A model generated the notes under the pieces. The model saw only the letters and a list, made by a program, of their open reading frames with translations, made no database searches and had not been told where the DNA came from. The position numbers and the translations under genes are program-made. This document shows positions 37,718 to 63,994 of a DNA stretch of 64,000 nucleotides, piece after piece. The stretch's first letter is position 1, and each line of letters starts with the position of its first letter. Source of the DNA: Nitrospirota bacterium (GTDB lineage Bacteria > Nitrospirota > UBA9217); the NCBI GenBank assembly GCA_963741205.1, contig CAVUHW010000012.1, positions 32,001-96,000 on the forward strand, given 5' to 3'.

Positions 37718-39046
37718 TCAATGCTTTATCTGCCTAATCAACATCTCTATTCTGGCCCTGAGTTCGGGGTCTTTTTCTTTCTTTTCCTCGATCACTTTGA
37801 CTGCGTGGATCACGGTGCTGTGGTCCTTGCCGCCGAAGAAATTTCCGATCTCCGGGAGCGAGGAGTTGGCCAGAGTGCGGCAGAGATACATCGCCACCTG
37901 CCGGGGAAGCACCACGGCCTTCGTGCGGCGCTTTGACTTCAAGTCGGAAATCTTGACGCCGAAGGATTCGGCCACGACCTTTTGAACAAGCTCGTTCGTG
38001 ATGATTCTTTCCCTGCTGTCGAGCAGGTATTTCAGCTCGTTCTTGGCGAGCTCCTGGGTGATCTCCGTATTCGTGAGCGACGAGACCGCGCCGAGCTTGA
38101 CGAGCCCTCCTTCGAGCTCCCGGATATTGTTCTTCATCATGGATGCCAGAAATTCCGCGACATCGTCGGGCAGCCGGATACCCCAGAAATCCGCTTTTTT
38201 CTTGAGGATCGCGATCCTCGTCTCCAGGTCCGGCGCCTGGATGTCCGAGATCAAGCCCGATTCGAACCGGGAACGGAGACGTTCTTCAATGTCCGGGATC
38301 TCCTTGGGCTGGCGGTCGCTGGTAAGCACGATCTGTTTCTGCGCCTCGTAGAGGGCGTTGAAGGTATGGAAAAACTCTTCCTGCGTCCGCTCCTTGCCGG
38401 CAATGAACTGGATGTCATCGATGAGCAGGATATCCATGTTCCGGTATTTCTGCCGGAACTCCTCCATCCGCTGGTGGCTCATGCGGTTGATCAGTTCGTT
38501 CGTGAACTGCTCTGACGAAAGGTAGGCGACCTTGGTCCGCGGCGATCTGCTCTGGATGTGGTGGCCGATGGCGTTCACGAGGTGGGTCTTGCCCAGACCC
38601 ACGCCGCTGTAGATGAAAAGGGGATTATAGGCCCTGCCGGGCGCATCGGCCACGGCCTTGGCCGCCGCATGCGCGAATTGGTTGCTCGGCCCGACAACAA
38701 AGGTGCTGAAGGTGTATTTCTTCTCAAAGAGGCCGATCTTTTCCTCACGGCCCTCTTTTTTCTCTTCCTTCGCCTGGCGAACTGCTTTTTTCGCCTGCTG
38801 GGGCTGGACAAAAAAGTCAATTTCCATGTCTTCTCTCTTCGTGACTTCCTTGATAACATCGGTTAGCGTTCCCCAGTGGTGCTCTTTGATCCAGTCGCGG
38901 TGAAATTTGCTCGGCACTTCTATTAAAAGCTTGTTGCCGTCAATGGACAGGAGTTTCGACTGGCTGAACCAGGTGTCGTAACCCTGCTTAGACATTCGGT
39001 TTTCAATCAGCAGCAGTATCTCTTCCCAAACTCTTTCCTGATCCAT
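37718..39046 (-). CDS. dnaA: Chromosomal replication initiator DnaA
   Basis: YTFSTFVVGPSN, YNPLFIYSGVGLGKTHL, LLIDDIQF, RQVAMYL, GGKDHSTV. Confidence 0.98.
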   Translation of the reverse strand: MDQERVWEEILLLIENRMSKQGYDTWFSQSKLLSIDGNKLLIEVPSKFHRDWIKEHHWGTLTDVIKEVTKREDMEIDFFVQPQQAKKAVRQAKEEKKEGREEKIGLFEKKYTFSTFVVGPSNQFAHAAAKAVADAPGRAYNPLFIYSGVGLGKTHLVNAIGHHIQSRSPRTKVAYLSSEQFTNELINRMSHQRMEEFRQKYRNMDILLIDDIQFIAGKERTQEEFFHTFNALYEAQKQIVLTSDRQPKEIPDIEERLRSRFESGLISDIQAPDLETRIAILKKKADFWGIRLPDDVAEFLASMMKNNIRELEGGLVKLGAVSSLTNTEITQELAKNELKYLLDSRERIITNELVQKVVAESFGVKISDLKSKRRTKAVVLPRQVAMYLCRTLANSSLPEIGNFFGGKDHSTVIHAVKVIEEKKEKDPELRARIEMLIRQIKH

Positions 39047-39093
39047 AGATACCCCGAAAATACCCGGAAAAACAGCCCTGGTTACAAACATGC

Positions 39094-49668: not shown

Positions 49669-50258
49669 ATGAGCGATACCAAAAAAGAGAAACCCTTACC
49701 CAAGCCGCCGCATACGGCATTCGGAAGAAAAAAACCGGCGGAACATGAGGAAGGAGACACGCTTCTGGCCGACCGTCTGGCTGCAGCCATGGCGGAAGGA
49801 AAGATCGAGGAATTTCTGAAGCAGGAGATGCCCGATAATGAATACGCCAGGAACCTGACATCCATGATGATGGGGATGACGGGGATGTTGCCGATAGGCG
49901 GCGCAGAGACGGCGCCTCAGCCCAGCCCCCCGAGAACAAAGGAGAGACCGCGGCGCATGAAGCCGCCGTATCCGCGGAAGCGTTGCCCGAGGGGGTAAGG
50001 GAGGCCGTTCAGGGCGGCGATGTAAAAGGGCTCACGGACCTTTTGCGCCGGGAACACCGGAAACGGATGCCCGATGCGAAGACTGAGCCGGCGGAAGAAA
50101 CTGCCGCCCAACGGATGCCGGCTCAGCCGATGATTGATAAGGAGTTGATCGACGCATTGATCAAGATCGCGGGAGAAAATAGCGTTACCCTCGACTGGAT
50201 GATCCTGCGGGCGATCAGGCTCTATGTTCAGGATTACGAGAAGACGGGCAGGCTGTAG
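49669..50258 (+). CDS. Hypothetical protein with C-terminal ribbon-helix-helix-like segment (frameshift)
   Basis: ORFs 49669-49998 and 49983-50258 join; IDKELIDALIKIAGENSVTLDWMILRAIRLYV resembles CopG/RHH. Confidence 0.5.
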
Positions 50259-51010: not shown

Positions 51011-52157
51011 TCATGAGCTCAGAAATTCCGTCACCGATCTCTTGATCTCCAGATGATGCACCGGAATGTTCGGCACGTCCTTGTTCCCCGGTATTGCGAG
51101 GATATGGATAAAGGCGGGACCTTTATGCCGATGCTTCATTATCTCGGTAATTTCCTTTTCCGCAGCAACTTTCACCGTCTCCCTGAACCCGAACCCCCGC
51201 GCCACCGATTCAAGATCGACGCATGACCCCGTCAGCGTCGGTTGATTTCCCGTAGATCCGTAAGCGCCGTTGTCGATCGCGATGATGGTAAGATTTTGCG
51301 GCGCAAAGAGGCGGCGGTCGCGAGCGTGCCGGGATTCATGAGAAGGCTCCCGTCGCCGTCGATCACGAAGACTTCCTTTGATGACGCAAGGGCGATGCCA
51401 AGACCGATGGGCGTGGCCATGCCCATGCTGCCGAGCATGTAGAAGTTCGAGGGCTGGTGCTTCAGTGCATAGAGCTCTTTGGACGGCCATCCGAGATTGC
51501 TCACAACAACCTTTCCTTCAAGGTACGGTGCGATGATCTTGATGATATCGTACCGGGTGAAGACGGCACGTGATGCGGCGATGCATGATTTGACGATGCA
51601 CGATGACCTGCATCTCCAGTATCCTTTAATTCCGCACTCCGCATTCTCGCACTCCGCAATCGGACCCCTCCCACACCGCCGGGCTCAGCAGGAATGCATG
51701 AATCCTGTTCCGGTCCGAAGACTTTCCTGAAGCATACGGTCCACCGCGCTGAAATCGCTGCTGCTGTTGATCTCCGAACTGGCAATCCCGGCGCCCGCGA
51801 GGATTGCGGGAAGACGCTGTCCCATCGGGAACTGCGCCTCGATCTTCTCTTGATAGACCCCTCTTCGGCTAACGAACAGGGCAAGGGGCAGCTCATAGAA
51901 ATGCGGTAAGCGAGAGGAGCGCGTTGATCATGTTCCCGATGCCGGAGCTCTGGACGAACATGGCAGGCCGCCTGCCCGAAAGGGCCGCGCCCGCGCAGAT
52001 GCCGACGCCTTCTTCCTCGCGCGTCAGGGGCACGTGAACGAAAGTTCCGGCCGACCATCTCCAGGAGGGTCTTGATCTTCTCGCAGGGCAGCGAGGCGGT
52101 GAAATCCACCGCATGCTTCTTGAGAAGGCTTATGAGTTCTTCTTCAGGACGCGGCAC
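51011..52157 (-). CDS. comDE: Fused sulfopyruvate decarboxylase ComDE (frameshifts)
   Basis: ComD part: SLPCEKIK.LL, TREEEGVGICAGA.L.G, QSSGIGNMINAL.SL. ComE part: VVSNLG.PSKELY, NFYMLGSMG, IDGDGSLLMNPG, DNGAYGSTGNQ. Confidence 0.88.
51565..51665. repeat. Heptamer repeats in the ComD-ComE linker
   Basis: ATTCCGC ACTCCGC ATTCTCGC ACTCCGC AAT and GTGATGC GGCGATGC ATGATTT GACGATGC ACGATG; first set matches the intergenic unit at 27222-27254. Confidence 0.6.
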
Positions 52158-53406
52158 AAAAGCTCCTCGATCTCTTTCCCGGTGACGTTCTTTGAGATGA
52201 ACTGCGGTGCGACTGCATGGGTCTTCCTTGTCCTTTCTCAACCGCGCTTCGCCGCCGCCGGTGATGTTCAGGAGAACGGTGTCGTTCCTGCTGATCGCGC
52301 CGGTTTTGACCGCGTCTTCGAGCGCGGCAACGGCCACGCCCGGCAGCGGGGACGATGTCGATGCCCTCGGTCCTGAGAAACGTTTCCATGGCCGGCGTAG
52401 ACCGCATCGTTCTCGATGCCGTACATCTTTCCGCCGGTTGCGGTGAGCGCATCGTACACGCCGCCTTTGACCGAATAGGCGGGATAGCGGGTCGAGAGGA
52501 CCCGCGTCGTGATCTGCGAGATCAGCTCCGGCCTGAGGTCGCCGGGATCAAGCGTCCGGCTGCTTCTTGCTCCCAGGCATGGAGCATCGGCGCGAACGGC
52601 AAGTTCTGCCCCAGATGCAGGACGGGCAGCCGAGAGCCGAACCTTCCGTCCCGGAGGAACCGCTCGGCCATTTCCCAGGCGCCGACGGCGCCGGTCCCGC
52701 TGCCCACGGCCTGGACGTAATGGTCCGGCAGTTGTCCGATCTTCGACACTGCTTCGAGCATGACAATGCCGAGACCGTCGCGCTTGGCGATATTCTTCAC
52801 GCCGCCTTCGAAGGGGAAACCCAGTGGCCATGGCGATCCTTTTCGCCACATCGATGGAATCGGCATAATCGCCGTCGCCCACCGCGAGGGTCGGGCACCG
52901 TGGATGAGCGCTTCGAGGTACCACATCTCGCCGAGGCACATCGCGGCACGACGATGACCGACGGGAAAGCCCGTGAGCGCGGAAAGATGGGCGAAGGCCC
53001 GCGCCGTGTTTCCGGCGGAGGCGACGATCAGTCCTTCGATGCCGTTCTCCCGGGCGTTCTGGAGCACGATCGCGGCCTCGAATTCCTTGAAGGTGCAGGT
53101 TTCGAGCAGCGCCCCTTTCTCCGGCCAGTAGCCGTTGAAGGCAATGTAGAGATTCTCGAGCCCGATGCTCCCTGCGAGGCCGCTGCGAACTGGTAGACAA
53201 CGGGACCGGGCTGGAGGGATGTCGGGCTCGTGGACCGGAAGCCAGTTGAACCGCCAGACGCCGCCCGACCCGCGCGCTCTCGACAAAGCGGGTGTCGTGA
53301 TAATCGGTCACCAGAAGCGCGTCCTTGCAGTGTTCGCAGAAGGCGCAGTAGGTGTGTTCGAGTGATCTTGCCGCAGTTCGCTGCATCGAATGGAAAAATG
53401 GCTCAT
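52130..53406 (-). CDS. Cysteate synthase (threonine-synthase-like PLP enzyme; frameshifts)
   Basis: LYIAFNGYWPEKGA...TCTFKEFEA (PLP Lys), VASAGNTARAF, EGGVKNIAKRDGLG, PDHYVQAVGSGTG, QNLPFAPM, VLSTRYPAYS..GG, LLNITGGG; overlaps the comDE start. Confidence 0.9.
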
Positions 53407-53526
53407 GACTTTTACACTAAGATCACCCGTCACCACGGCCCTGCTCCCACGGAGGGGAGCAGGATGTAGCCCCTCGCCTTGATGGGAGGCGTTCGGTGAG
53501 CGTGAACGTTCCTGGTCGAATGTTTC

Positions 53527-54738
53527 TATAATCAAATCCGCTCACCAGCTCCATGATGTCCGTGATCCGGATCTGGTTCTTGTGTCCCTGCATGGCCTCG
53601 TTCACCTTGGCGTAGCAGGCGGGACAGGCGAGGATCAGCCGGTCGGCCTTCTTCGCCACCGCCTCATCGATCGTCAGCCTGCCCATGGCGATCGCGTTCT
53701 CATGAAACACCTTTCGTGCCGCGCCGCCGGAGCCGCAGCAGCGCGAGTCCAGGCCGTGGCGCTGGAACTCGAGGAGCTTGATCCCCGGGATGCTTCTAAG
53801 CACCTCTGCGCGGCTCTTCGATCACGCCCACGCCCCGGCTGAGATAGCACGGGTCGTGGTAGATCACGGATTCGCGCAGTTCCTTGTTCAACCGCAGCTT
53901 GCCGTGCTTGATGGCGTCCGAGACATATTGCGTGATATGCCGTGATCGTGAACGGGCAGCGCCTTGCCGTAGAACAGGGGCCAGTCCCGGATCATGATGT
54001 TCACGCAGCAGGGACAGGAGCAGACCAGCGTCTTTACCCCGCTTCGCCTGATAGCCGTCCACGAGCCTCGTGACGAGGTCCTTCAAGAGATCGTGCTGTC
54101 CCGTGATGAAGAGCGGAAAGCCGCAGCAGACCTCCTCCTCGGGCGGCAGCATGGTGAATGGTTCGCCGATGGCGTTCGAGGACGAGCACGTCGCCCCGCA
54201 CCATGGGCTGCGCCTCGTAGGCGCCGGTGCATCCGGCGTAGTAGGCGATGTCCGCGCGCTCGGCGACCTTCACGTTCTCCGGGAACCAGGGCTTGTACCG
54301 GTCCGCGGCCGGCTTGTCATAGGGGTTGCCGGATTTTGCGATGGCCTTGCGGCAGGTCCGCCTGAACGCCGATGGGGCCGAGGCCCGCGCTTCACCATTT
54401 CTTTCCTGAGCATGGGCCAGAGCCGCTGCGTAAAGATGCCCACCGGGCAGTTCTGCCCGCAGGCGCCGCAGGTGGTGCATTCATACACCGCCTTGGTGAA
54501 GTCCTCGAGCATCTTGCGGTCCGCTTCGCGCGGGGCCGAAGAGCCTGGCCTTGAGACCGTCGGTTGCGCGGATGAACTCGCGGAACATGCGGATCTTCTC
54601 CGGCGGCGAGACCGCGGGTCTGCCGGTCACGTCCTGCACCGGGCAGTGCTTCAGGCACTCGCCGCATTGGGTGCAGGCGTCGATCTCGAGGATCTGACGG
54701 GGCGAGAGCTCTTCGGTGAATGAACGTTTATTCTTCAT
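53527..54738 (-). CDS. HdrD-like Fe-S oxidoreductase (2x[4Fe-4S] plus 2 CCG domains; frameshifts)
   Basis: CTQCGECLKHCP, CTTCGACGQNCP, YYAGC, EVCCG, CSCPCC, YHDPCYL.R, RCCGSGG, ACPAC. Confidence 0.88.
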
Positions 54739-55409
54739 GGATCACCAGGCGAAGCGCCTGCTCCCGCTTCCTCGCCTCCATCATCACCAGCGGGGCGGTG
54801 AAGATGTGGGTCGGAAGAAAGGGGACCAGGACCAGGACGAGGGAAAAGTGCAGCAGGAACAGCAGGCTCTCCGGCGCCGCGGCCGGATGAAAGCGCAGGA
54901 TGCCGAGGGCGAACAGTTTCACATCCACGAGATCGGGCTTGTACCAGACGCTGCATGATCACGCCGAGGGAACTGATCAGGAGCACCAGGTGACGAGGAA
55001 CACTGTTTGCGGGAGCCGCATATTTTTCGTGCCTGGTGAGCAGCCGGATGACAAGGATATATGCCGCGGCAAAGGGCAGAACGTATCCGGCGATCAACCC
55101 CGGCGTCTGCAGCCACCAGACCCAGAGCGGGACGGGATCCAGGAAGTACCGCAGGTGCCGCAGGATGACGAACAGGAAGGAGGCGTGAAAGGCCCATTCG
55201 CCGATCCAGAGCGCGGGGTTCACGTTCAGGACCCTGCCGAGAAGCAACACATCCACGGCCGTGAGGACGCATGCTTTCAGCGCTGATCGCGGGCCTGTCG
55301 GCTCGCGAAGCCGCTGCGCCGCTCTCCACCACACCAGGAAATGCGCGAAAAACCGCAACCAGAAGGCCGCGTACACGCAGTATGCGGCTACGATGAGAAA
55401 TTTACCCAT
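54728..55409 (-). CDS. HdrE/NarI-like membrane cytochrome b subunit (frameshift)
   Basis: About five TM helices with His pairs FHASF...LRHLRY and LLHF...PTH; overlaps the hdrD-like start. Confidence 0.7.
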
Positions 55410-55529
55410 GCATTATCGCCGTTTGCCGTTGCTGCCACTATTGTACCATATCGGGCAGATAACCCCTTGCAACCTGATCGAGCCGGGGTCCGAGCGGTCA
55501 GCGGCATGAGTACGAGATGGTCGACTTCC

Positions 55530-55856
55530 TTATTTGGGACTGTCTTTTTTTACGAAAATGATGCTCGCGTCCTTTGCGACATTGAGTCCCGCCTCGACCT
55601 CGAGCGCCTTCAGGATGCCGGACGGCACGGTGCAGGCGACATGCTTCAGATGTATGGCCGCGGACCGGTAAACGGGATTGCTCGTGAACCCGGTCAGCGG
55701 TGCGAACCGGTCGAGGACCGAGATGTCTTCGAGCATCTTCTTCACCATCTCGCAGTCGGTATCCAGGGAGATGGCGATCTTCCCGCCGGCGACCTTTTCA
55801 GCCCTGATGGTGACGGAAAAGCCGCATGCCCCCGAGTTGACAATGACCTTTGTCAT
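55530..55856 (-). CDS. Small Cys/His protein, DUF6951-like
   Basis: GACGF, TDC, H.ACTVPSGILKA.EVEAGL pattern. Confidence 0.6.
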   Translation of the reverse strand: MTKVIVNSGACGFSVTIRAEKVAGGKIAISLDTDCEMVKKMLEDISVLDRFAPLTGFTSNPVYRSAAIHLKHVACTVPSGILKALEVEAGLNVAKDASIIFVKKDSPK

Positions 55857-55998
55857 GATGGCCTTTCATTCCAGCATCCTTATCGCCCCAGATAGACGAT
55901 GAGTCACGATACTATAAATTCCCGCTTCTGCGTGAATTCGATCCAGCCCTGCGCGTACATTTATCCCAGGGCCGATGAACCTTTATCCGCATTCCGAC

Positions 55999-57984
55999 TC
56001 ACGCCTTGATCTCAACCGTGCTCCCCTTCTTTGCGAGGTACTCCTTCAAATTCGGGAACTTGTCCTTCATGTGCGGAATATGCATCGCCATCATGAATTC
56101 CCTTTCGAAGGCCGGGTCCGTGGCGATCTCGACGAATTCGACCCAGCGCGCCCGCTCATTCGCCTCTATGCGCTTGCCCCGGTTCAGGAGCGCCATGCGC
56201 GAACCGTCGCCGGCCGCGTTGCCCACGGCGTAGATCTTGTCGAGGGGCAGTCGGGGAACATGCCGAGCGTCAGCGATGCCTCGCGGTCGATGTGGCTCCC
56301 GAAGGCGCCGGCAAGGATAACGCGGTCGAGCTGTGGTGATGCCGAGCTTCTTCATCATGAGCTTCGCGCCCGTGTAGAGCGCGCCCTTGGCGAGCTGGAG
56401 CGCGCGCACGTCGCCCTGGGTGATGGTGATGTCCTGGCCGATGGAGGTCTCCGTTGCCCAGGCGAGGACATACTCGGGCTTGCCGTCGGCGTCCTTCCTG
56501 ACCCGCGGCGTGCCCAGGTCCATCACGAACCTGCCGCTCTTGTCGATGATGCCGGCCTTGAACATCTCGGCGACCACCTGGATGATGCCCGAACCGCAGA
56601 GGCCCTTCGCATCCACCTTCTGGATATGCGTGTGCCAGTCCGCCTTGCCGATGACCTTGTAGCGCGGTTCCTTCGTCGCGGGGTCGATCTCCACGGTCTC
56701 GATGGCGCCGGGGGCCGCCCGCATGCCGAACTTGATCTGGGCGCCCTCGAAGGCCGGTCCGGTGGCGCAGGACGTGGAGCAGACCTTGTCCCGGTTGCCC
56801 ATGAGCAGTTCGCCGTTCGTGCCGATGTCGATGATCAGCACCTTCTCGTCCTGGTTATAGGGTTCCTCGGCGATCAGGACGCCCACGTTGTCGGCGCCCA
56901 CGAAGCCCGCCTCGATGGGCAGCACATGGATGTAGGCGGCGGGATTGATCTGGAGGCCCAGGTCGCGCGCCTTGATGTCGAGCGAGCTCTGGACCGCGGG
57001 GATGAAGGGCGACCGGCCGATGTACTCGGGGTTCAGGCCCAGGAAGATGTGGTGCATGGCCGTGTTGAACACGATCGTGAGGTCGTCGATGACATATCCG
57101 GGGTTCGGCCCGTCCTTGTTGATGTCGCGTCACAACGCGCTCGATGATCTCGTTCAGGCCCTGGATGATCGCTTTCTGCATGGTCTCCAGGCCCACGCCG
57201 GGATTGCTCATGGCATAGGTGATGCGGGACATCACGTCCTCGCCGTAGGGCACCTGGGGGTTCATCATGGACTCGGTGTTCACCACCTTGCCGGTGTTCA
57301 GGTCCGTCAGGTAGCCCACGCAGGTCGTCGTGCCGATGTCCACGGCAAGCCCGTAGCTCTCCTCGACGAACCCCGGCTCCGCCTTGATGATCTCCTTGTC
57401 CATCCAGACGGTGACCGTGGCCTTCCATCCGCCTTTGCGAATCACGTCCTGGAGGTCCTTCAAGACCAGATAATCGAAGGTGAGGCCCTTGAGCCCGTAG
57501 TCGTCCTCAAGGAACTTCAGGACCCGTTCCCAGTCCCCGGTCGTCATGTCGTGGAGCGTGGGAGGGGTGAGCTCGACGTTGTATTTTTTCACGGCCGGAT
57601 CGAGCTTGATCGTGAGCTCTTTGGCCGCCTTCCGGACGACCTGCTTGCCCGCGCGGGAACGCTCGGGCACGAAGACCTTGATGTCGCCCCGGATCTCGCT
57701 CTGGCAGGACAGTCTGATGCCGGGCCCGTCCTGGGGCTTGATGTGCTTCATCTCGTCGGGCGACGGCACGGCAGGGGAGAGTGGGCCATGCCCGAATCGA
57801 TGTTGTCCTTCTCGAAATAGCCTTCTTCGATCCTTACCTTGCACTTTCCGCAGACTTTTTTATTGCCGCAGAGCGCTTCGATATCAACGCCCAGGGCCTG
57901 GGCGGCCTCGAGGATGGTCTTGCCTTCCTCGATCTCGCCGCGCCTGCCCGCAGGCTGAAATATGACCTTGTGTTTCTTAATCAT
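55999..57984 (-). CDS. Corrinoid reductive activator (RACE/RACo; [2Fe-2S] plus ASKHA ATPase; frameshifts)
   Basis: CGNKKVCGKC...RLSCQ ferredoxin, AVDIGTTT, NPQ..YGEDVMSRI, GFVGAD, IDIGTNGE, CATGPAFEG, GLCGSG, QLAKGA, GNAAG. Confidence 0.92.
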
Positions 57985-58014
57985 GCAATTCCTCCTAATA
58001 CTAAATCATGAGAA

Positions 58015-58130
58015 TTCACCACAGAGCACGAGGTAGCGAAAATGAGCGAACTCAGAAGTAAGACACCTTTCTAGATTCGCGCCTCGATTCCGGGCTGATG
58101 TCTCCGTGATCTCCGCGTCTCCTGCTTCGC
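58015..58130. repeat. Hairpin element at the 3' end of the QueG-like gene
   Basis: TCACCACAGAGCACGAGG ... CTCCGTGATCTCCGCGTCTCC. Confidence 0.45.
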
Positions 58131-58767
58131 GATCTTTTTCGCGTTTCTCTTCTCCCATAGGGGCAGATGTTGATGCACAGCCCGCAGTTGGGTTTGCCGT
58201 CCGTGGCCCGCTTGGCCTTCTTATGACTCCTGCAGGCGTCGAGCCTCACGAGCTCCACAAAGGGAAGGGACCGGGACCATTCCGCGCCCGTGATCGCCTT
58301 CGACGGACAGTAGTCCACGCAGAGCGAGCAACTCGCCGCACAGACTGTGTTCGATCGGCGCGTCCGGCTCGAAGCGGCGCGTCGGTCAGCACCGTGCCAG
58401 GGACAGCCGCGGGCCGTAGTCGGGGCTGATGAGGAGCCCGTTCTTCCCGATCCAGCCCAGCCCCGCGGAGGTGGCCGCCATCTTGTGGTTGAACAGCGAG
58501 TAGAGCTTCGAAATGAACGTGCCCTTCTTCCGGTCCGAGTCCGGCGGGATGGCCAGCGTGCGGTACCCCCGGGATTTCAGGAACCGCACGGCGCGCTTCT
58601 GGAGCTTCATGAGGAGGCTCAAGCGTGTCCTCATTCAGCCTGCGGTCCACGCCGATGGACACGGCCTGCTCCAGATGGGCGATCTCGCCGCTCATATGGC
58701 CCCGGAGACCGGCAAACCCGACGACGTCGGCGCCGTGGTCCAGCAGCTCTTTCCTGAGCGAGGTTCT

Positions 58768-58771
<4 letters not shown>
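58052..58771 (-). CDS. QueG/reductive-dehalogenase-like cobalamin Fe-S protein (frameshifts)
   Basis: GADVVGFA, AVSIGV, FNHKMAATSAGLGWIGKNGLLISPDYGPRL, C..C..CVDYCP..AI, CGLCINICPYG. Confidence 0.75.
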
Positions 58772-59464
<693 letters not shown>

Positions 59465-59468
59465 GGGA

Positions 59469-60496
59469 TTACCTCCTGTAATTTCTGACTTCATCCATCA
59501 TCGCCTTGAAATTTTCGGCCGGCACCGTGGGCCAGATGTCGCACCCGGGCCAGACCGCGCTCACGCCGTCGTCCATGCATTTCTTGACGGTCTGGCGCAC
59601 GAGGTCCGGCGTTCCCGCCACCAGCACATTGTAGGGGTCGTAGTTCCCGAAGACGAGCGCCTTGGGGCCGAGCTTCTTGCGCGTCTCGGCGACGTCGTTC
59701 TTCTGGTCCACGCTGATCGCCTTCGCGCCGCTCTCGGCCATGAAGGGAACGATGTCGTTCGTCTTGCCGCAGATGTGGATCGCGCTCGGCACGGTGATCT
59801 TCTCGAAGATCTTCTTGAGGTAGGGCAGGATGAGGCTCTTGAACACGCGGGGGCAGAGCACGTCGGAAGTCGCGCCCATCTCCCTGACGGTGATGTAGTC
59901 CACGCCGGCCTTCTGGTACTCCCCTGCCACCTGGATGATCACGTCCGTCAGCTGGTCGAGCAATTTCCCGATCTTGTCCGGCTTCTTGAAGGACAGCTTC
60001 AGGAGGTCGTTCAGCTCCATGATCTGGCCCGCGAGCGTGAAGGGACCGAGCACGTAGGAGCCCACGGCCGCCTCGCCGCCGATGTCCTTCTTGATCAGCT
60101 TGATCGCCTCGACCATGAGCGGCACCCTGCCCCGCTTGGTGAGGTCGGACGGGATGGAGAGCTCCATCTCGGCCTCGTTGTGGATCAGCTTTTTCTTGAT
60201 CGTGGGGTACAGCAGGTCCTCGGAATGGGCATACACATTGATCTCGCACCCCATGGCCTCGGCCTCGATGCAGAGGTCGAAGGGCGCGACCGCGCATTCG
60301 AACCCGAACAGCTTGTACGTAGTAGCCGCCGCCGCGGCCATCATCTTTGCGTCAAGGTGCGTTGCCGCGAATTCTGGTTCAGCGATTTCAGCCCCTCGGT
60401 GGTCACGTTGCCCATGCCGCTGAAGCACGGCGGCCGGTCCACTTCCTCGCCGGCGAACATCTTCAGCACCCGTTCTCTTGAATTCATTGTTGTCAT
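59469..60496 (-). CDS. MtaA/CmuA-family methylcobamide:thiol (CoM) methyltransferase (frameshifts)
   Basis: HLDAKMMA, PFDLCIEAEAMGC, GRVP, GPFTLA, zinc motif HICG...PGC. Confidence 0.88.
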
Positions 60497-60524
60497 GCAA
60501 TCTCCTTCCTGATACGAAAATAAA

Positions 60525-60615
60525 ATTTATTGTAAATTGCAGATTGAAAGTTGGAATTACATTTTCAGAGATTCAGTTTTGTAAAATTCAATTTCGAATA
60601 CTCCGCTATTCAATC
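60525..60615. repeat. Heptamer-repeat element between mtrH and mtaA
   Basis: TAAATTG CAGATTG AAAGTTG GAATT ... ATTCAGT ... ATTCAAT TTCGAAT ... ATTCAAT. Confidence 0.55.
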
Positions 60616-60630
60616 GGCGTCTGTCAGCGC

Positions 60631-61577
60631 CTACTTTCTCGCTGCTCCCGAGGTCAATTTTCCCAGGAAATCCGAAAAATACTTCTTGATCGGCAGATTG
60701 GGATTGTCCGATATCTTATGCGTCTCGTCATACACCAGCGTGGAAAGCAGGACATGCGCCGCCGCCACTGCCGGGATGATCCGCGGCATCGTTACGATGG
60801 GGCCGCAGAAATTGAAATCGCTCCACAGCGCCGAAGCCATGCCCTGGACCACGGCGTCCATGGCCTTGAACCCGTCGAGGCTCCAGATGGTCTTCGCCTC
60901 CTTCCACATGTGCGTGCCGTTCGAGTAGGCGCCGCCGCAGGGGAGCCCCAGCTTCTCCTTGATCATCCGGTTGGCGACGAGCGAGAACGACGTGGCGGGC
61001 AGGTTCATGACCGAGGTGTCGACGATGACGGTTTCGAAGCTGTCGGCGCCCTGGCGAGGATGTTCTCCAGGGACTTGAGCCGGCCGGCGGGCGACTGGTC
61101 CTGTCGTCGAAGGCCTGTACCACGACGTGCTTGATCCCGAGGTCTTTGAGCTTCTGGACCTGGCCCTTGATGTCCTTGTCCCAGGGGGTGATGCTGTTGT
61201 ACAGGAACTTGTCCTGCAGTCCCAGCTTGGCGACATATTCCGTTGCCTGCGCGCGTTTTTCCGCGACCCACATGTCGATGCCGAAGGGCATGGTCGGTCG
61301 TCTCGCGGTAAAAGTCGATGTAGATCTTCGCCTCTTCCGGCGAGTTGGCGACCATGGCCACCATGGACGGGATGCCGGTGGAGGCCGAAAGCTGCTCCAT
61401 CGTTTTGATGAGTTCCGCGGCCTTCGCGCGGTCGAAATTCCCTTTCCGGTCGGTCACGATCCGGTCCTTGTTGTGGAACATGGACGCGATCTGAAGCGGC
61501 GGATTTTCGCCCGGCTGCCCGCCGACCTTGATCCCGCCAGAGTTGAATGTCTTTTGATCTTTTTTAAATTGAAACAT
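60631..61577 (-). CDS. MtrH/MtgA-family methylcorrinoid:pterin methyltransferase (frameshifts)
   Basis: MFQFKKDQK.F...GIKVGGQPGENPP...SMFH....IV.D...G.FD..KA, YNSI, IKEKLGLPCG. Confidence 0.85.
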
Positions 61578-61669
61578 TTACCGTCCTCGCATTATGCCGC
61601 CATTCCGGACTTGATCGGGGAATGACCGATAAGAATAGTCTGAGCAAGAGAGTAACGAATTATGAGTCC

Positions 61670-61705
61670 AAAAAAACGGGGGAGCCATTCGAAACGCTCC
61701 CCCGT
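61670..61705 (-). terminator. Intrinsic terminator after the CMD gene
   Basis: ACGGGGGAGC...GCTCCCCCGT followed by a T-tract on the minus strand. Confidence 0.75.
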
Positions 61706-61718
61706 CGATAGTTCATGG

Positions 61719-62161
61719 TTAGAACACGCCGTGGTCGAACTTGGGCTGCGGCAGGTACTCCCACTTCTCGCCCTTGCGGAACTTGGCTTCGATATCGAGG
61801 CACTTCAGGGCATACTCGAAGGCGTAGGGGATGCCGGGTCCGCCGGGCACGAAGCCGCCGAGGATCATGCCGACCGAGGCGGCCTCGAAGATCTCGCCCG
61901 TGGTCGCGCCCGCGTTGATCGCGGGATCACATGGATGATGCAGCGCGGCGAGCAATAGGCGACGCCGCCGGACATGAACATCAGCTCCTTGTACTTGCGG
62001 GAAAGGGCGCCGTCGCCGAAGATGCTCGCGTAGAAATCGGCGAAGGTCCTGCCCGGTTCGGGCGTGACGGTGTTGATGATCTGGAACATGCGGGGAACGA
62101 AACCGCACTGCTTCTTCATGTAGTCGTTCACTTCTTCCAACGTCATTTTCTTGTCAGCCAT
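61719..62161 (-). CDS. Carboxymuconolactone decarboxylase/AhpD-family protein (frameshift; alternative GTG start at 62236)
   Basis: GALSRKYKELM....VAYCSPRCIIH, GATTGEIFEA. Confidence 0.8.
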
Positions 62162-62476
62162 TTTTGTTCCCTCCCCTTGCCCGGATGCGCTCTGCGCCCG
62201 GGAAAACAGTTTTTTCAACTCCTCCAAAATACCCACTGAATCGACCTCCTTTCACGAAACCGAACCGTATCACCTCCTTCGTAACCACAGGCGGCTGCGC
62301 CGCACACGGTAAAGATTAAAACCAGCCCCGACGAAAGCGTTCTGCCCGAGTTATTATTATCGTGTTCATCCGCATGCACCCAGCGATTACGAGTGGCACG
62401 TAACCTGCTCTTGCGAAAGCGCGGCCATAAACGAGTGCGGGGTGTGAGTCACGCGAAGCGGGACCCGTGGTTGCAA

Positions 62477-63514
62477 TCACAGTTTCCACTCCAGCGCCAC
62501 GTCGTGGAACTTCCGGAGATTCTCGTAGGGAATCGTCGGCGGGATGTCGCACCCGGGCACCAGGATGAACCCGCCGTCCTTGCCGGCGACCTCGATGACC
62601 TCGCGGCAGGCCTTCTCCACCCCCGCGACGTCCTGGTTGAGCAACACGTGCACCGGCGCGACGTTGCCCCCGAAGCTCATCTTCCCCTGCAGCGCCTCCT
62701 TGGCCTTGGCGATGTCCACCTTCTGGTCGAAGAAGATCGTGCTCGCCCCCGTGAGCGGGAACAGATCCAGCCGGTCGCTGGTGTTCCCGCAGATGTGCAG
62801 GATCGAGTGCACGCCCTTGCCCTTGGCCCAGCCGGTGAGCTTCTTCAGGCCCGGCACCGCGAAGCGCTCCATCTGCTTCTTGTTGATCAGATCTCCCGAG
62901 GCGGTCGGGTCAGCGATGCTGATGCACTCGAGGCCGTCCTTTACCAGCGGCTCGTAGAGGTGGATCAGCAGGTCGGCGCAGAAATCGACCATCTTCTCGA
63001 CGAACGCCGGCTTCTTGAAGGTCGCCTTCATGAACTGCTCCTCGCCGACGAAGCGCGCCGCAAGGGTGAACGGCCCCCAGCAGGTCATCGTCACGAGGTA
63101 GGTGTCGCCGATCTTCTCCCGGACGCGCCGGGTCGCCTCGAGCACCGTCTGGACGACCGGCTCGCGGTGGACGTCGGCGATGTCGAGCTTCGCCAGGTCC
63201 TCCTCGGAGTTGACGAAGTGGGTGGTCATGTCGGGAGCGCCCATCTCGCGGTACTTGATCCCGACCCCGAAGGCCTTGCCGAGCGCCGAGGCGTGGAAGT
63301 TGTTGAAGCCCGAGCCGACGTAGACGACGTCGCTTCGGATTCGCGCCGCCTCCGCCACGCACATATCGGTCATCTTCTGCGGATCGTGGGCGAGCGCCTC
63401 GAAGGTCGTCCCGAAGTCCTTGATCGACCACATCCCCGCGCCGAAGAGGGTCACGGGAATCCGGTCGCCCTTGCCGCCCTCAAATGCCTTGAGTATCACT
63501 TCCTTCGGTTTCAT
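62477..63514 (-). CDS. Second MtaA/uroporphyrinogen-decarboxylase-family methyltransferase
   Basis: DRIPV, GPFTLA, IADPTASGDLI, zinc motif LHICG...PGCD, GNVAP. Confidence 0.88.
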   Translation of the reverse strand: MKPKEVILKAFEGGKGDRIPVTLFGAGMWSIKDFGTTFEALAHDPQKMTDMCVAEAARIRSDVVYVGSGFNNFHASALGKAFGVGIKYREMGAPDMTTHFVNSEEDLAKLDIADVHREPVVQTVLEATRRVREKIGDTYLVTMTCWGPFTLAARFVGEEQFMKATFKKPAFVEKMVDFCADLLIHLYEPLVKDGLECISIADPTASGDLINKKQMERFAVPGLKKLTGWAKGKGVHSILHICGNTSDRLDLFPLTGASTIFFDQKVDIAKAKEALQGKMSFGGNVAPVHVLLNQDVAGVEKACREVIEVAGKDGGFILVPGCDIPPTIPYENLRKFHDVALEWKL

Positions 63515-63636
63515 AGCATCTCCCTTCATGAATAAAGTAGAATCAAACCTTCAGCCCGCTTGGGGCCGCCATCATTTAATGTAGCACAAATAGAGTTCCT
63601 GCGTGTATGGGCTGACAGCAACGGTCCTAATGGGCT

Positions 63637-63964
63637 TCAGACTGCGATACTGTGGATCGTGTGCTTGAACTCTTCGAGATCAACGGGCGTCTCGACGGAC
63701 GGCACATCCGCATCGACTGCCGCCCCCCACGACGAGCGTGGGCGTGCCCGGCGACACGGCCTTGATGATCTCCACCGCGTCCTCGGCGGACAGGCCGAAG
63801 GGCTCCGAATCGATGATGACGAAATCATATTTCCCGAACAGGACCTTTTGAACGGCGAGGGAGGGATGCTCGACGATTTCCACGTTGTAGCCTTCCTCGC
63901 GAAGGACACAGTAGAGGCTCTTGACCAGAATGGGATTGGAGGAACAGAGAATGATGTTCTTCAT
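63637..63964 (-). CDS. Atypical single-domain response regulator (frameshift)
   Basis: Receiver-like pattern L...GYNV...YDFVIID...P; lacks the N-terminal acidic pair and the conserved Lys (ETPV instead of KP). Confidence 0.65.
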
Positions 63965-63978
63965 GGCAGGGATTTAAC

Positions 63979-63994
63979 TGCATTTGCGATGCCA
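63979..63994 (-). promoter_or_regulatory. Putative sigma54 (-24/-12) promoter
   Basis: TGGCATCGCAAATGCA with exact GG-N10-GC spacing. Confidence 0.55.

Follow-up and report, generated by a model that had tools for sequence, protein, structure and literature searches.

A block of genes in a Nitrospirota genome raises the question of whether a bacterium can make coenzyme M (CoM) and use it as a methyl carrier, as a preliminary description of the locus had proposed. Taking as tblastn queries the 13 intact proteins encoded at locus L011 of G002, a relative in the same genus, we found all 13 named genes on the minus strand at positions 51011–63964 of the window, i.e. the whole 64,000-nucleotide stretch analysed, and families were assigned using Pfam and NCBIfam. 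The genes run in the order receiver, MtaA-2, CMD/AhpD-like protein, MtrH, MtaA-1, corrinoid protein, QueG/RdhA-like Fe-S protein and RACo, followed by DUF6951, HdrE-like protein, HdrD-like protein, cysteate synthase (CS) and fused ComDE. The names, order and strand given previously were therefore confirmed by tblastn, but not the count of 12, as 13 genes had been named and 13 were found. The features are as follows.

63637–63964, minus: receiver, a CheY-like single-domain response regulator of ~110 amino acids; frameshifted near its end
62477–63529, minus: MtaA-2, URO-D/MtaA-like zinc methyltransferase, 350 amino acids; one open frame, intact
61719–62236, minus: CMD/AhpD-like protein with a CxxxCxxH motif; single frameshift near 61923
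60631–61589, minus: MtrH-family methyl-corrinoid:pterin methyltransferase; ~4 frame-changing indels
59469–60493, minus: MtaA-1, MtaA/CmuA-family zinc methyltransferase; base missing near 60374
58772–59464, minus: corrinoid (B12-binding) protein, DxHxxG type; 4 extra bases in the window
58154–58758, minus: short QueG/reductive-dehalogenase-like protein with two [4Fe-4S] motifs; frameshifted
55999–57984, minus: RACo, ATP-dependent reductive activator of corrinoid proteins; frameshifted
55530–55856, minus: DUF6951, small Cys/His protein with a predicted IscU/SufE-like fold; intact
54731–55409, minus: HdrE/DsrM/NarI-like membrane protein, putative di-haem cytochrome b; frameshifted
53423–54738, minus: HdrD/DsrK/TfrB-like protein with two [4Fe-4S] motifs and two CCG domains; ~8 extra bases
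52133–53406, minus: cysteate synthase; ~15 frame-changing indels in the window
51011–52168, minus: fused sulfopyruvate decarboxylase ComDE; ~8 frame-changing indels in the window
49714–50255, plus: convergent conserved ORF of ~199 amino acids, of no family, marking the end of the block; frameshifted

The convergent ORF has homologues on the downstream side of ComDE in 21 loci and no match in Pfam or NCBIfam.

Conservation, origin and integrity of the block

The block is colinear in all 60 of the Nitrospirota loci found with CS, the presence of this gene being the basis on which they were picked. CS occurs in 60 of them, ComDE in 59, HdrD in 55 and MtaA-1 in 43, and of the 17 loci lacking MtaA-1, 16 are truncated no more than 420 bases from their start. 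The end of CS and the start of ComDE share 25–28 bases in 52 of 52 loci, HdrE and HdrD overlap in 40 of 45, the gap from HdrD to CS is at most 30 bases in 25 of 53, and in all 42 loci compared at most 8 bases separate the stop of MtaA-1 from the start of the corrinoid protein gene. Among 64 genomes of the class, both CS and an MtaA-1 orthologue are found in 36, neither in 23, CS only in two and MtaA-1 only in three, each of these five discordant genomes having at least 210 contigs; across this set, the genes for methyl transfer and for CS tend to be present or missing together. In G329, a genome of another family, both halves are present on different contigs, with CS–ComDE detached.

Methanogens are the best-known source of several of these gene families and the GC content of the block (0.61–0.62) is above the contig range of the genome (0.48–0.61), both of which would suit an archaeal contig that had been mis-joined or mis-binned. 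However, the block lies inside Nitrospirota contigs of 1.76, 0.85, 0.93 and 0.78 Mb, bacterial genes flank it on both sides in the window, RACo, the DsrM-like protein and the receiver are of bacterial type, and the Nitrospirota CS proteins form a clade of their own (SH-aLRT 100). The mis-joining that the preliminary description had held could overturn its reading was not borne out, the G002 block being placed within a contig of 1,758,701 bases, and a mis-joined or mis-binned archaeal contig is scarcely credible. These data support the block as a real, conserved bacterial unit.

In the window, only MtaA-2 (62477–63529) and DUF6951 (55530–55856) are intact single frames, whereas the other 11 of the 13 genes span two to four frames, and alignment with G002 gave ~56 frame-changing indels within genes (43 extra and 13 missing bases). 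The number of indels and of genes affected could mean that the frameshifts are real and that this organism no longer uses the cluster, which would then be decaying into pseudogenes. The intact rpoB of the same genome adds to this, as errors are not uniform. Against decay, the indels are strongly skewed to single extra bases, nucleotide identity to G002 in the broken genes (74–87%) is not below that in the two intact frames (65–71%), and dsrA and acsB, which are core genes of this metabolism, are split alike in this genome; among the four relatives examined, dsrA is whole in three and acsB in all four. With dsrA and acsB split and rpoB whole, the errors are patchy and not specific to this cluster. 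In addition, contigs of four sediment runs, which are 88–99% alike and represent relatives or other samples rather than a proven source sample (a point in favour of decay), lack the indels at the places listed, namely 56334, 58619, 59043, 60371, 61052, 61102, 61292, 61295, 61687, 61921 and 61925, together with a twelfth, the 2-base insertion behind 58776; most of these 12 places are no more than ~8 bases from an indel seen on alignment with G002, and 64 more places lie beyond this list. As the relatives and the four environmental runs are without them, the indels are most likely consensus errors rather than signs of a dead cluster, and we consider decay improbable. Contigs from RNA runs also cover the block, which is no proof of transcription.

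CS, ComDE and a possible route to CoM

The G002 orthologue of CS scored 460.2 on TIGR03844, passing the curated equivalog cut-off of 324.9, and residues 1–419 were matched in the window over two frames by tblastn. ComDE, of which residues 1–378 were likewise matched in the window, passed both cut-offs as its G002 orthologue, with 185.1 against 147.95 for TIGR03845 (alpha) and 229.9 against 221.5 for TIGR03846 (beta). Judged by these curated cut-offs at the sequence level, CS and ComDE are true members of their families. ComDE was also considered as a phosphonopyruvate decarboxylase, for which it did not pass (213.8 against a cut-off of 312.5), and PEP mutase, relevant to a phosphonate alternative, was over its cut-off in none of the five genomes searched. 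CS alone is not diagnostic of CoM, since it adjoins a serine-palmitoyltransferase-like acyltransferase in a Dehalococcoidales locus.

To our knowledge, MMP16/ComF (COG1900) is the only known archaeal last step to CoM. It was found in none of the five genomes, three of which are 99–100% complete, leaving the last step to CoM without a known gene. mcrA, noted earlier as missing from the window, was missing from all five genomes as well, so that methyl-CoM has no known consumer. The inference of CoM synthesis thus retains CS and ComDE, but not a recognized final enzyme.

Methyltransferases and iron–sulfur proteins

MtaA-1 is a Pfam URO-D protein (E=3e-67), 87% identical to that of G002, in which the base missing from the window near 60374 shifts approximately the first 40 residues. 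It passes the subfamily cut-offs of PRK06252 (265.1 against 244) and TIGR01463 (247.7 against 235.4), models that represent the MtaA/CmuA and ‘methylcobalamin:CoM methyltransferase’ subfamilies, and fails the methanogen equivalogs MtaA_Meth (245.8 against 400) and MtbA (180.1 against 600). It matches Methanosarcina mazei MtaA (PDB code 4AY7) with an E-value of 7e-45, with the HxC and GC motifs aligned, and its zinc site (H242, C244 and C320) is invariant in 39 of 39 orthologues. MtaA-2, also a URO-D protein (E=6.5e-57; 67% identical to G002 MtaA-2), has an equally invariant His-Cys-Cys set (H248, C250 and C330; 39/39) and fails even the subfamily models, scoring 180.7 against the TIGR01463 cut-off of 235.4. 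The earlier reading of CoM as methyl carrier gains from the subfamily assignment of MtaA-1, but loses from the absence of MMP16 and mcrA.

The remaining methyl-transfer proteins were identified as named. MtrH matches Pfam MtrH and its G002 orthologue scored 324.2 on NF002142 (cut-off 287), while the corrinoid protein, in four tblastn pieces that are 68–100% identical, has a G002 orthologue with the B12-binding and B12-binding_2 domains. The QueG-like protein (three pieces) matches epoxyqueuosine reductase (5D6S, residues 166–278; E=7e-14) and has eight cysteines invariant in 39 of 39 sequences. RACo was matched in three tblastn pieces; RACo_C_ter, Raco_middle and RACo_linker were found on pieces from the window, and the G002 orthologue has Fer2 and all three RACo domains. 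For the receiver, residues 1–84 of the 110 in the G002 protein, a Pfam Response_reg member, match 63964–63713 by tblastn. The CMD/AhpD-like protein (Pfam CMD; two pieces, 90 and 98% identical) has C95 in 24 of 25 sequences and C99 and H102 in all 25, and its only NCBIfam matches, all weak, are to AhpD domains of arsenic/selenium methyltransferase selenoproteins.

The HdrE-like protein (two tblastn pieces) has a weak NCBIfam match to DsrM (60.5 bits against 300) and four histidines invariant in 43 of 43 sequences. The HdrD-like protein, spread over three tblastn frames, contains two CCG domains and Fer4_8, with all cluster cysteines kept in 45–47 of 47 sequences, and passes no specific profile (TfrB, the best, 180.5 bits against 385; DsrK 96 against 400); a canonical DsrK is encoded elsewhere in all five genomes. 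The HdrDE-like genes described previously are hence present, but as a generic NarI-like/CCG pair, whose substrate may be a protein-bound persulfide rather than the CoM heterodisulfide. On contig C49 there is an HdrD paralogue, 74% identical, with a DsrE-like sulfur-relay gene nearby. DUF6951 (95.8 bits against a Pfam cut-off of 27) has C11, C35, H72 and C75 invariant in 48 of 48 sequences, in the pattern C..C..HxxC. The top Foldseek PDB matches to its AlphaFold2 model (pLDDT 94.2) were all IscU, SufE, SufU or CsdE (best E=0.03, TM 0.57), with no Foldseek match at E≤0.001 and no sequence match in the PDB; this weak match suggests a predicted fold resembling the sulfur carriers IscU and SufE, a likeness that is new here.

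A possible sulfonated-thiol operon and its alternatives

We give a probability of roughly 0.5 to the block being one functional operon in which the making of a sulfonated C2 compound is linked with corrinoid-dependent transfer of S-methyl groups. Its hosts would be anaerobic sulfate- or sulfite-reducing Nitrospirota with a Wood–Ljungdahl pathway; AcsB and DsrA are each present in five of five genomes, offering a possible methyl sink or source. CS, fused ComDE and a general aminotransferase would convert phosphoserine and sulfite into sulfoacetaldehyde, which an enzyme different from MMP16 might thiolate, giving CoM or a closely similar sulfonated thiol, with DUF6951 as candidate sulfur carrier and the HdrDE-like pair as candidate reductant. 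This NarI-like di-haem protein and CCG iron–sulfur protein would act in the membrane as a quinone-linked thiol/disulfide oxidoreductase akin to DsrMK and HdrDE. Both MtaA-type enzymes have the kind of His-Cys-Cys zinc site that typically goes with thiol or selenol substrates; MtaA-1, translationally tied to the corrinoid protein, could with the latter and the MtrH-family enzyme, as corrinoid-to-pterin link, interconvert methyl-S-thiol, methyl-corrinoid and methyl-H4folate. RACo and the QueG-like protein would be at hand for re-activation. Such a route would do in soluble form what the Mtr reaction does in methanogens, feeding or draining the Wood–Ljungdahl methyl branch, and MtaA-2 with the AhpD-like protein may act on a second methyl-sulfur or methyl-selenium substrate. 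Against this explanation, we reason that a methyl-oxidizing sulfate reducer thermodynamically needs no CoM between corrinoid and H4folate.

MtaA-like enzymes and clusters in bacteria without CoM genes have been associated with methyl-sulfur and methyl-selenium compounds, including methyl sulfides and selenides (PMC10418091), and G002 carries a second MtaA-like cluster without CoM genes. The block could be a demethylation system resembling the mlp gene cluster, with MtrH as an addition, in which MtaA-2 and MtaA-1 move methyl groups from methanethiol, dimethyl sulfide, methylselenol and the like on to the corrinoid protein, MtrH hands them to H4folate, and the sulfide, selenide or persulfide set free is dealt with by the AhpD-like, DUF6951 and HdrDE-like proteins. 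CS–ComDE would be separate in purpose, its sulfoacetaldehyde going to taurine, isethionate or a sulfonolipid head group rather than a methyl-carrying thiol. The zinc site suits sulfur or selenium substrates by the criterion of PMC10418091, and the selenoprotein matches of the AhpD-like protein, the sulfur-relay gene near the HdrD paralogue, the absence of MMP16, the reach of H4folate by MtrH alone and the detached CS–ComDE of G329 all point the same way. However, the translational chaining of CS–ComDE to HdrE–HdrD and the co-inheritance of CS and MtaA-1 (59/64 genomes) are left unexplained, the sulfoacetaldehyde-consuming enzyme Xsc was over its cut-off in none of the five genomes, and MtaA-1 passes the CoM-methyltransferase subfamily model. 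We therefore regard demethylation alone as possible, though doubtful.

CoM or a relative might instead serve mainly as an antioxidant or redox buffer, its disulfide re-reduced from the quinone pool by the HdrDE-like pair, with the AhpD-like protein as peroxidase partner and the methyltransferases as a side activity or regulatory sink. CS–ComDE does share the block with an AhpD/CMD-family protein and a membrane pair resembling a disulfide reductase, and methanogens are reported to be protected from oxidative stress when CoM is raised through comDE (PMC12713407, a 2025 paper). Nevertheless, a full set for corrinoid methyl transfer, its activator included, accounts for seven of the 13 genes and is as conserved as CS–ComDE, MtaA-1 co-occurs tightly with CS, and there is no evidence of regulation related to oxygen, which makes such a role unlikely.

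Our literature search found no paper describing this system, in agreement with the earlier statement that no characterized bacterial system of this composition was known, and the proposed operon suggests that bacteria may use a ‘methanogen’ cofactor in a way not described so far. Likewise new here, three of the 60 loci contain an SsuA-type sulfonate transporter within the block: its SsuA-family binding protein scored 194 bits (cut-off 163.5), the permease is present in all three and the ATPase was matched in two. A solitary SsuA-like binding protein is encoded next to ComDE in eight loci and next to the detached CS–ComDE pair in G329.

Conservation and gene content of the block

A tblastn search with the 13 proteins of the intact copy in G002, a relative of the same genus (locus L011), recovered all 13 genes on the minus strand of 51011-63964, in the order that the preliminary description had given; that description counted 12 genes, but its own list held 13 names, and 13 were found. 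The window belongs to a 4.27 Mb genome in 50 contigs (G000, 84% complete), which was examined together with G001 (99% complete), G002, G019 and G024 (100% each); these are the five genomes referred to throughout.

Table. Genes of the block (window 51011-63964, minus strand), in order from the receiver to ComDE. Scores are in bits, against the cut-off of the model; 'G002' marks an assignment made on the intact G002 copy.
Receiver: Response_reg (G002)
MtaA-2, URO-D-type zinc methyltransferase: URO-D (G002)
CMD/AhpD-like protein: family assigned on the intact copy (G002)
MtrH: NF002142, 324.2 vs 287 (G002)
MtaA-1, URO-D-type zinc methyltransferase: PRK06252, 265.1 vs 244; TIGR01463, 247.7 vs 235.4 (G002)
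Corrinoid protein: B12-binding and B12-binding_2 (G002)
QueG/reductive-dehalogenase-like protein, 230 aa: two [4Fe-4S] motifs; match to epoxyqueuosine reductase 5D6S at E 7e-14
RACo: three RACo domains (PF14574, PF17651, PF17650) and Fer2; scores 316, 178, 86 and 38 (G002)
DUF6951 protein: family assigned on the intact copy (G002)
HdrE-like membrane protein: weak DsrM match (G002)
HdrD-like protein: CCG iron-sulfur protein (G002)
CS, cysteate synthase: TIGR03844, 460.2 vs 324.9 (G002)
ComDE, fused sulfopyruvate decarboxylase: TIGR03845 (alpha), 185.1 vs 147.95; TIGR03846 (beta), 229.9 vs 221.5 (G002)

All four domains of RACo were found on the G002 orthologue, and RACo pieces were matched in the window too. 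The G002 orthologue of CS passes its curated equivalog cut-off, with threonine synthase as the next-best model at 88 bits, and tblastn identifies the window CS as the same gene, but frameshifted. The beta half of ComDE passes only narrowly. As ComDE fails the phosphonopyruvate decarboxylase (Ppd) model (213.8 vs 312.5) and PEP mutase is above its cut-off in none of the five genomes, a phosphonate role for this decarboxylase is unlikely. A search for sigma-54 consensus sites gave seven matches in the window against 4.4 expected, none of them sensibly placed for the operon.

The block is a real conserved unit. A scan for CS with one genome per species yielded 63 loci, namely two from Heimdallarchaeota, one from Dehalococcoidales and 60 of the Nitrospirota type, these last in Nitrospirota or Thermodesulfovibrionia MAGs and including one 'Betaproteobacteria' bin at 80% identity. 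Gene order was colinear in 60 of 60, so that the synteny looked for in Nitrospirota MAGs is indeed conserved. ComDE follows CS in 59 of these loci, the lone exception stopping at a contig end; an HdrD-like gene stands before CS in 55, and 43 loci contain MtaA-1. Of the 17 that lack it, 16 are cut within 420 bases of the first gene of the cluster. In 22 loci the 10 kb flank that was fetched takes in the full run of 12 genes, MtaA-2 through ComDE. Spacing is tight: CS and ComDE overlap start to stop or nearly touch in 52 of 52 cases and HdrE and HdrD in 40 of 45, MtaA-1 lies at most 8 bases from the corrinoid protein gene in 42 of 42, and HdrD lies at most 30 bases from CS in 25 of 53. At least 60 species-level genomes of Nitrospirota, recovered from sediment, soil and groundwater, keep the operon. 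The archaeal character suggested for some of the genes had raised the prospect of a mis-joined archaeal contig; the block sits within contigs of up to 1.76 Mb, which excludes such a mis-join, and a chimeric contig is scarcely conceivable.

Among 64 genomes of the window's class, all of one family, CS was found in 38 and an MtaA-1 orthologue in 39; 36 have both, 23 neither, and the five discordant genomes each consist of at least 210 contigs, figures which serve as description only because the genomes are kin. In G329, a genome of another family, the part from methyl transfer to HdrD and the CS–ComDE pair are both present, on separate contigs. The best 120 listed homologues of CS are all close, Nitrospirota-type sequences (74-100% identical), with no methanogen reference among them. 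A CS tree had 104 rows, made up of 94 full-length representatives at 50% identity (380-480 aa, out of 150 listed, the 56 shorter or longer ones being left out), eight Nitrospirota, one Heimdallarchaeota and one Dehalococcoidales sequence; here the Nitrospirota CS form one clade, with P0127, P0147, P0122 and P0133 as nearest neighbours, and two of 10 rows looked up carried an organism (Methanomassiliicoccus and Phycisphaerae), the tree giving neither donor nor direction of transfer.

The 'Betaproteobacteria bacterium MAG281' locus (L020) is a 7.6 kb contig running from the QueG-like gene to ComDE, 67-87% identical to Nitrospirota genes, and probably represents Nitrospirota DNA placed in the wrong bin. 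G004, a genome of the same genus, has the block twice (contigs C16 and C40), with MtaA-1 97-98% and CS 86-88% identical to G002; the block is either duplicated there, or the bin mixes two strains.

Frameshifts in the window assembly

In the window MtaA-2 and DUF6951 alone can be read as single open frames; the other 11 genes are spread over two to four frames. Compared with G002, about 56 frame-changing indels lie inside genes, 43 of them extra and 13 missing bases in the window; CS has 15 and the HdrD-like and ComDE genes eight each. These could be true pseudogenisation in this strain, whatever the function of the block, and such an explanation would account for the disruption of nearly every gene; at the nucleotide level, however, the broken genes are 74-87% identical to G002, no less than the intact ones. 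In contigs from four sediment runs (one RNA, three DNA; 88-99% alike) the window indels were absent at all 12 listed places, beside which there are 64 further places, and most of the 12 are within about 8 bases of an indel of the G002 alignment. No run covers 55340-55773; the shares of words in the runs are small (0.07-0.12), so that nothing on habitat or strain is read from the runs beyond their 'sediment, soil' labels. Moreover, dsrA (G000 contig C8, 197604-198750) and acsB (contig C22, 114567-115037) are split likewise, each over two or three frames, whereas among four relatives dsrA is whole in three and acsB in all four, and this indicates that frameshift errors occur well outside the block; rpoB of G000 is intact, so the errors are patchy. 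The indels in the block are accordingly very probably consensus errors, and a genuine decay of the genes is improbable. A statistic of ORF coverage, tried as a measure of genome-wide frameshifts, was uninformative, as a high-GC genome yields long spurious frames.

Elsewhere in the window, two overlapping ORFs of 217 and 188 aa on the minus strand at 36589-37408, beside a 457-aa ORF at 37718-39091, may be one gene split by another frameshift.

Predicted sulfonate synthesis and the putative disulfide reductase

By curated cut-offs both signature enzymes of the phosphoserine route are present, CS, a family that turns O-phosphoserine and sulfite into cysteate, and ComDE, and production of sulfoacetaldehyde is a well-supported prediction from their sequences. 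The preliminary description had proposed that the bacterium may make coenzyme M (CoM). In favour of this are the CS and ComDE equivalogs, but the step from sulfoacetaldehyde to CoM was left unsupported, the CoM synthase MMP16/ComF (COG1900, PF01837) being found in none of the five genomes, whereas the controls M. jannaschii and M. acetivorans were matched. In Methanosarcina, MMP16 is the accepted last enzyme, a COG1900 protein whose gene comes right after cs and comDE, the type 2 CoM genes of M. acetivorans being cs (MA3297), comDE (MA3298) and MMP16/ComF (MA3299); a mutant without MMP16 is nevertheless reported to grow without CoM if sulfide is supplied, so other routes exist (PMC11844431, PMC12068725). 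The block resembles M. acetivorans in that CS adjoins a fused ComDE, both above the curated equivalog models, and differs from it in lacking MMP16 from the operon itself as well as from the five genomes, in having the HdrE/HdrD-like pair and DUF6951 upstream instead, and in its host, a bacterium without mcrA. Sulfoacetaldehyde acetyltransferase (Xsc) was not found above its cut-off in the five genomes.

CS alone is not diagnostic of CoM. At the Dehalococcoidales locus (L076, 1840-6296) a CS homologue of 44% identity comes before a BioF/serine-palmitoyltransferase-like acyltransferase, and an SDR lies upstream. A cysteate synthase homologue, an acyltransferase and an SDR are the expected make-up for a capnine-type sulfonolipid, and this locus, by its gene content, looks like a set of such genes in Chloroflexota. 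At the Heimdallarchaeota locus examined CS comes after a PAPS reductase, and ComDE is absent from both of these loci. The other entry to CoM, through ComA, is uncommon in Nitrospirota (23 of 401 genomes), and in the 10 loci fetched it was not beside methyl-transfer genes; the ComA of G329 lies 7 kb off on the opposite strand and scores 96.8 against a cut-off of 280 on the archaeal model. Xanthobacter autotrophicus Py2 is described as making CoM by ComA and XcbB1-E1 from phosphoenolpyruvate, for alkene metabolism (PMC9457059, as cited in PMC12068725). If the block makes CoM, its host would be like Py2 a bacterium with CoM but no methanogenesis, using a different route in which ComA does not accompany the operon.

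Genes for aliphatic-sulfonate ABC transporters of the SsuA family lie inside the block in three of the 60 loci (L040, 1282-3803; L050, 641-4826; L068, 5038-6746), each insert encoding a binding protein (194 bits vs 163.5) and a permease, and two of them a matched ATPase as well. In eight loci a lone SsuA-like binding protein stands just past ComDE, and the detached CS–ComDE pair of G329 has one too. These genes indicate that a sulfonate belongs to the business of the block. We also looked for the same machinery joined to other routes of CoM supply, and only the transporter part was seen, in the three loci named. The insert of L050 also holds a chemoreceptor, a gene type found inside the block in four of 60 loci, and L040 and L050 carry a second NarI-like/HdrD-like pair.

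All 48 DUF6951 sequences compared keep the residues C11, C35, H72 and C75. Its AlphaFold2 model (pLDDT 94.2) matches IscU, SufE, SufU and CsdE in all of the top 40 or so PDB hits, weakly (best E 0.03, TM 0.57, none at E <= 0.001), while a profile search of PDB sequences gave no match and an atlas look-up returned other DUF6951 clusters only, from Nitrospirota, Thermodesulfobacteriota and Chloroflexota. Set on an IscU/SufE-like fold, a C..C..HxxC site would fit a carrier of persulfide or else a small Fe-S protein. A predicted complex of DUF6951 with the HdrD-like protein scored 0.01, which speaks neither for nor against binding.

In the HdrE-like protein four histidines are invariant (43 of 43), and the HdrD-like protein has two [4Fe-4S] motifs and two CCG domains (Pfam CCG twice, Fer4_8), the cluster cysteines being kept in 45-47 of 47 sequences. 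The general HdrD and HdrE features that had prompted the name HdrDE-like are therefore present, but they are also common to DsrMK, TfrB, GlpC and others, and no specific profile cut-off was passed: the best profiles of the HdrD-like protein are TfrB (180.5 vs 385) and DsrK (96.1 vs 400), DsrM likewise fails for its partner, and no HdrD-specific profile was among the matches. In the PDB the HdrD-like protein matched an unnamed 'iron-sulfur-binding reductase' (9OJN) and, at E 7e-4, HdrB. With DsrMK and HdrDE, in which a membrane NarI-like cytochrome b is joined by a CCG iron-sulfur protein, the pair shares the histidines of the membrane subunit and the clusters of the soluble one, and is distinct from the organism's own DsrMK, whose canonical DsrK (about 730 bits) lies elsewhere, close to dsrAB, in all five genomes. 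It is best regarded as a putative quinone-linked thiol/disulfide oxidoreductase of the DsrMK/HdrDE type. Such an activity would be in keeping with a redox buffer of the CoM type, an explanation to which we give little weight; the same operon also carries the methyl-transfer genes.

A further intact HdrD-like protein of 402 aa, 74% identical to that of the G002 cluster, is encoded on contig C49 of the window's genome (10729-14162; locus L102), downstream of a DsrE-like sulfur-relay protein and a protein of 220 aa with weak similarity to a type III sulfide:quinone reductase; the DsrE-like gene again ties this HdrD subfamily to protein-bound sulfur. The GC content of C49 is 0.535, and the contig may come from another organism in the bin.

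Methyl-transfer genes and proposed function

Both MtaA-like proteins align with the HxC and GC of MtaA (4AY7), and none of these residues varies among the 39 orthologues of either protein. Kountz and Balskus (bioRxiv 2023, PMC10418091) take such a His-Cys-Cys set as zinc ligands, typical of sulfur or selenium rather than oxygen substrates. Of the two proteins named MtaA, MtaA-1 passes the subfamily cut-offs for MtaA/CmuA (TIGR01463) and methylcobalamin:CoM methyltransferase (PRK06252), and MtaA-2 does not (TIGR01463, 180.7 vs 235.4; PRK06252, 171.1 vs 244); neither reaches the methanogen equivalogs NF040654 (MtaA) and NF041608 (MtbA), MtaA-1 scoring 245.8 vs 400 and 180.1 vs 600, and MtaA-2 144.2 and 161. 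MtrH was correctly named at the subfamily level (NF002142) and fails the archaeal mtrH equivalog TIGR01114 (171.2 vs 271.4) and MtgA (149 vs 550). The system is like the MtaA, MtbA and MtsA of methylotrophic methanogens in its URO-D fold, its zinc site and the adjoining DxHxxG corrinoid protein, but identities are 33% or lower, and RamA and the membrane Mtr complex are replaced by a bacterial RACo and an MtrH that stands alone.

The block may also be compared with type 1 mlp gene clusters, for which at least an Mlp2 and an Mlp3 with a corrinoid protein and RACE are required. The same source describes them from more than 100 genera, among anaerobic bacteria and Methanococcales. Two or three MtaA-like proteins are joined in them by a corrinoid protein and a RACE activator, an H4folate methyltransferase is lacking, and the clusters are connected with the metabolism of methyl-sulfur compounds and methyl-selenide (PMC10418091). 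By composition, as opposed to clades, the block agrees with them in its two MtaA-like proteins with His-Cys-Cys, corrinoid protein, RACE/RACo and nearby sulfur/selenium accessory genes, and departs from them in having MtrH, the HdrDE-like pair, DUF6951 and CS–ComDE. This likeness would be expected if the operon were an S- or Se-methyl demethylation system whose sulfonate genes serve another end, and the direct route from corrinoid to H4folate needs no thiol carrier; set beside the sulfonate genes that keep their place in the operon, we consider this rather unlikely. The main text of PMC10418091 contains no occurrence of cysteate, sulfopyruvate, HdrD, MtrH or any word beginning with Nitrospir. 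As had been supposed, no characterised bacterial system of this kind came to light: our literature search found no paper describing the block or linking Nitrospirota with cysteate synthase or ComDE, and MtaA or comE are mentioned in data sets containing Nitrospirota in passing only. The parts are of known kinds and the combination is new.

Regarding the host, the search for Wood-Ljungdahl genes was successful, AcsB/CdhC being found in all five genomes, and the absence of mcr from the window extends genome-wide (mcrA in none of five). DsrA was matched in all five and is above its cut-off in three. Together with DsrK, these results describe sulfate- or sulfite-reducing anaerobes that have the Wood-Ljungdahl pathway and no methane metabolism.

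The reading that we favour, at a probability of about 0.5 for its four steps together, is as follows. CS, a general aminotransferase and ComDE would produce sulfoacetaldehyde, which some enzyme, with DUF6951 and the HdrDE-like pair as candidates, would thiolate to CoM or a closely related sulfonated thiol. Methyl groups would then move between this thiol and H4folate by way of MtaA-1, the corrinoid protein and MtrH, and MtaA-2 with the AhpD-like protein would handle a second S- or Se-methyl substrate. Its weak points are the missing CoM synthase, the lack of a known use for methyl-CoM where MCR is absent, and the dispensability of a thiol carrier already noted. A narrower version, which is distinctly unlikely, has genuine CoM formed by the archaeal phosphoserine route and ended by a non-homologous CoM synthase, followed by a soluble Mtr-like reaction in a sulfate reducer without MCR. 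MMP16 would here be replaced by a persulfide borne on DUF6951, which would thiolate sulfoacetaldehyde, with the quinol-linked HdrE/HdrD-like pair performing the reduction, and MtrH, the corrinoid protein and MtaA-1 would form a soluble three-protein equivalent of Mtr between methyl-H4folate and methyl-CoM.

CoM is the methyl carrier of methanogens and alkane-oxidising archaea, and to our knowledge the only bacterial setting described for it is alkene or epoxide metabolism, in which another pathway supplies it. Should the operon make and methylate CoM or a close relative, this would be a third, unrecognised role of a 'methanogen' cofactor, in sulfur-cycling bacteria; comDE and cysteate synthase would lose value as methanogen markers in metagenomes, a new CoM synthase would be implied by the absent last step, and methylated sulfur and selenium compounds would have a route into the Wood-Ljungdahl pathway of sulfate reducers.

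G002 also carries a second corrinoid methyltransferase cluster (contig C2, 690868-704799; L079, 4868-18799), consisting of a PAS histidine kinase with a LuxR-type regulator, a URO-D protein sharing 49% identity with MtaA-1, a CobW GTPase, a CbbQ/MoxR ATPase, a protein of 903 aa with no family assignment, DUF2284, a second URO-D protein, a probable corrinoid protein and RACo, and by this gene content it looks like a plain type 1 mlp cluster. At the block itself, contigs of the RNA-library run X1 reach their greatest depth over the AhpD-like gene (834; 61850-62283) and are also deep over the corrinoid protein gene (187; 58812-59245), which, the depths being summed over organisms, is at most a hint of expression. 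Just upstream of the G002 block and divergent from it (L011, 3395-4267) lies a gene for a CobW/COG0523 metallochaperone GTPase, which may supply zinc or cobalt to the methyltransferases.
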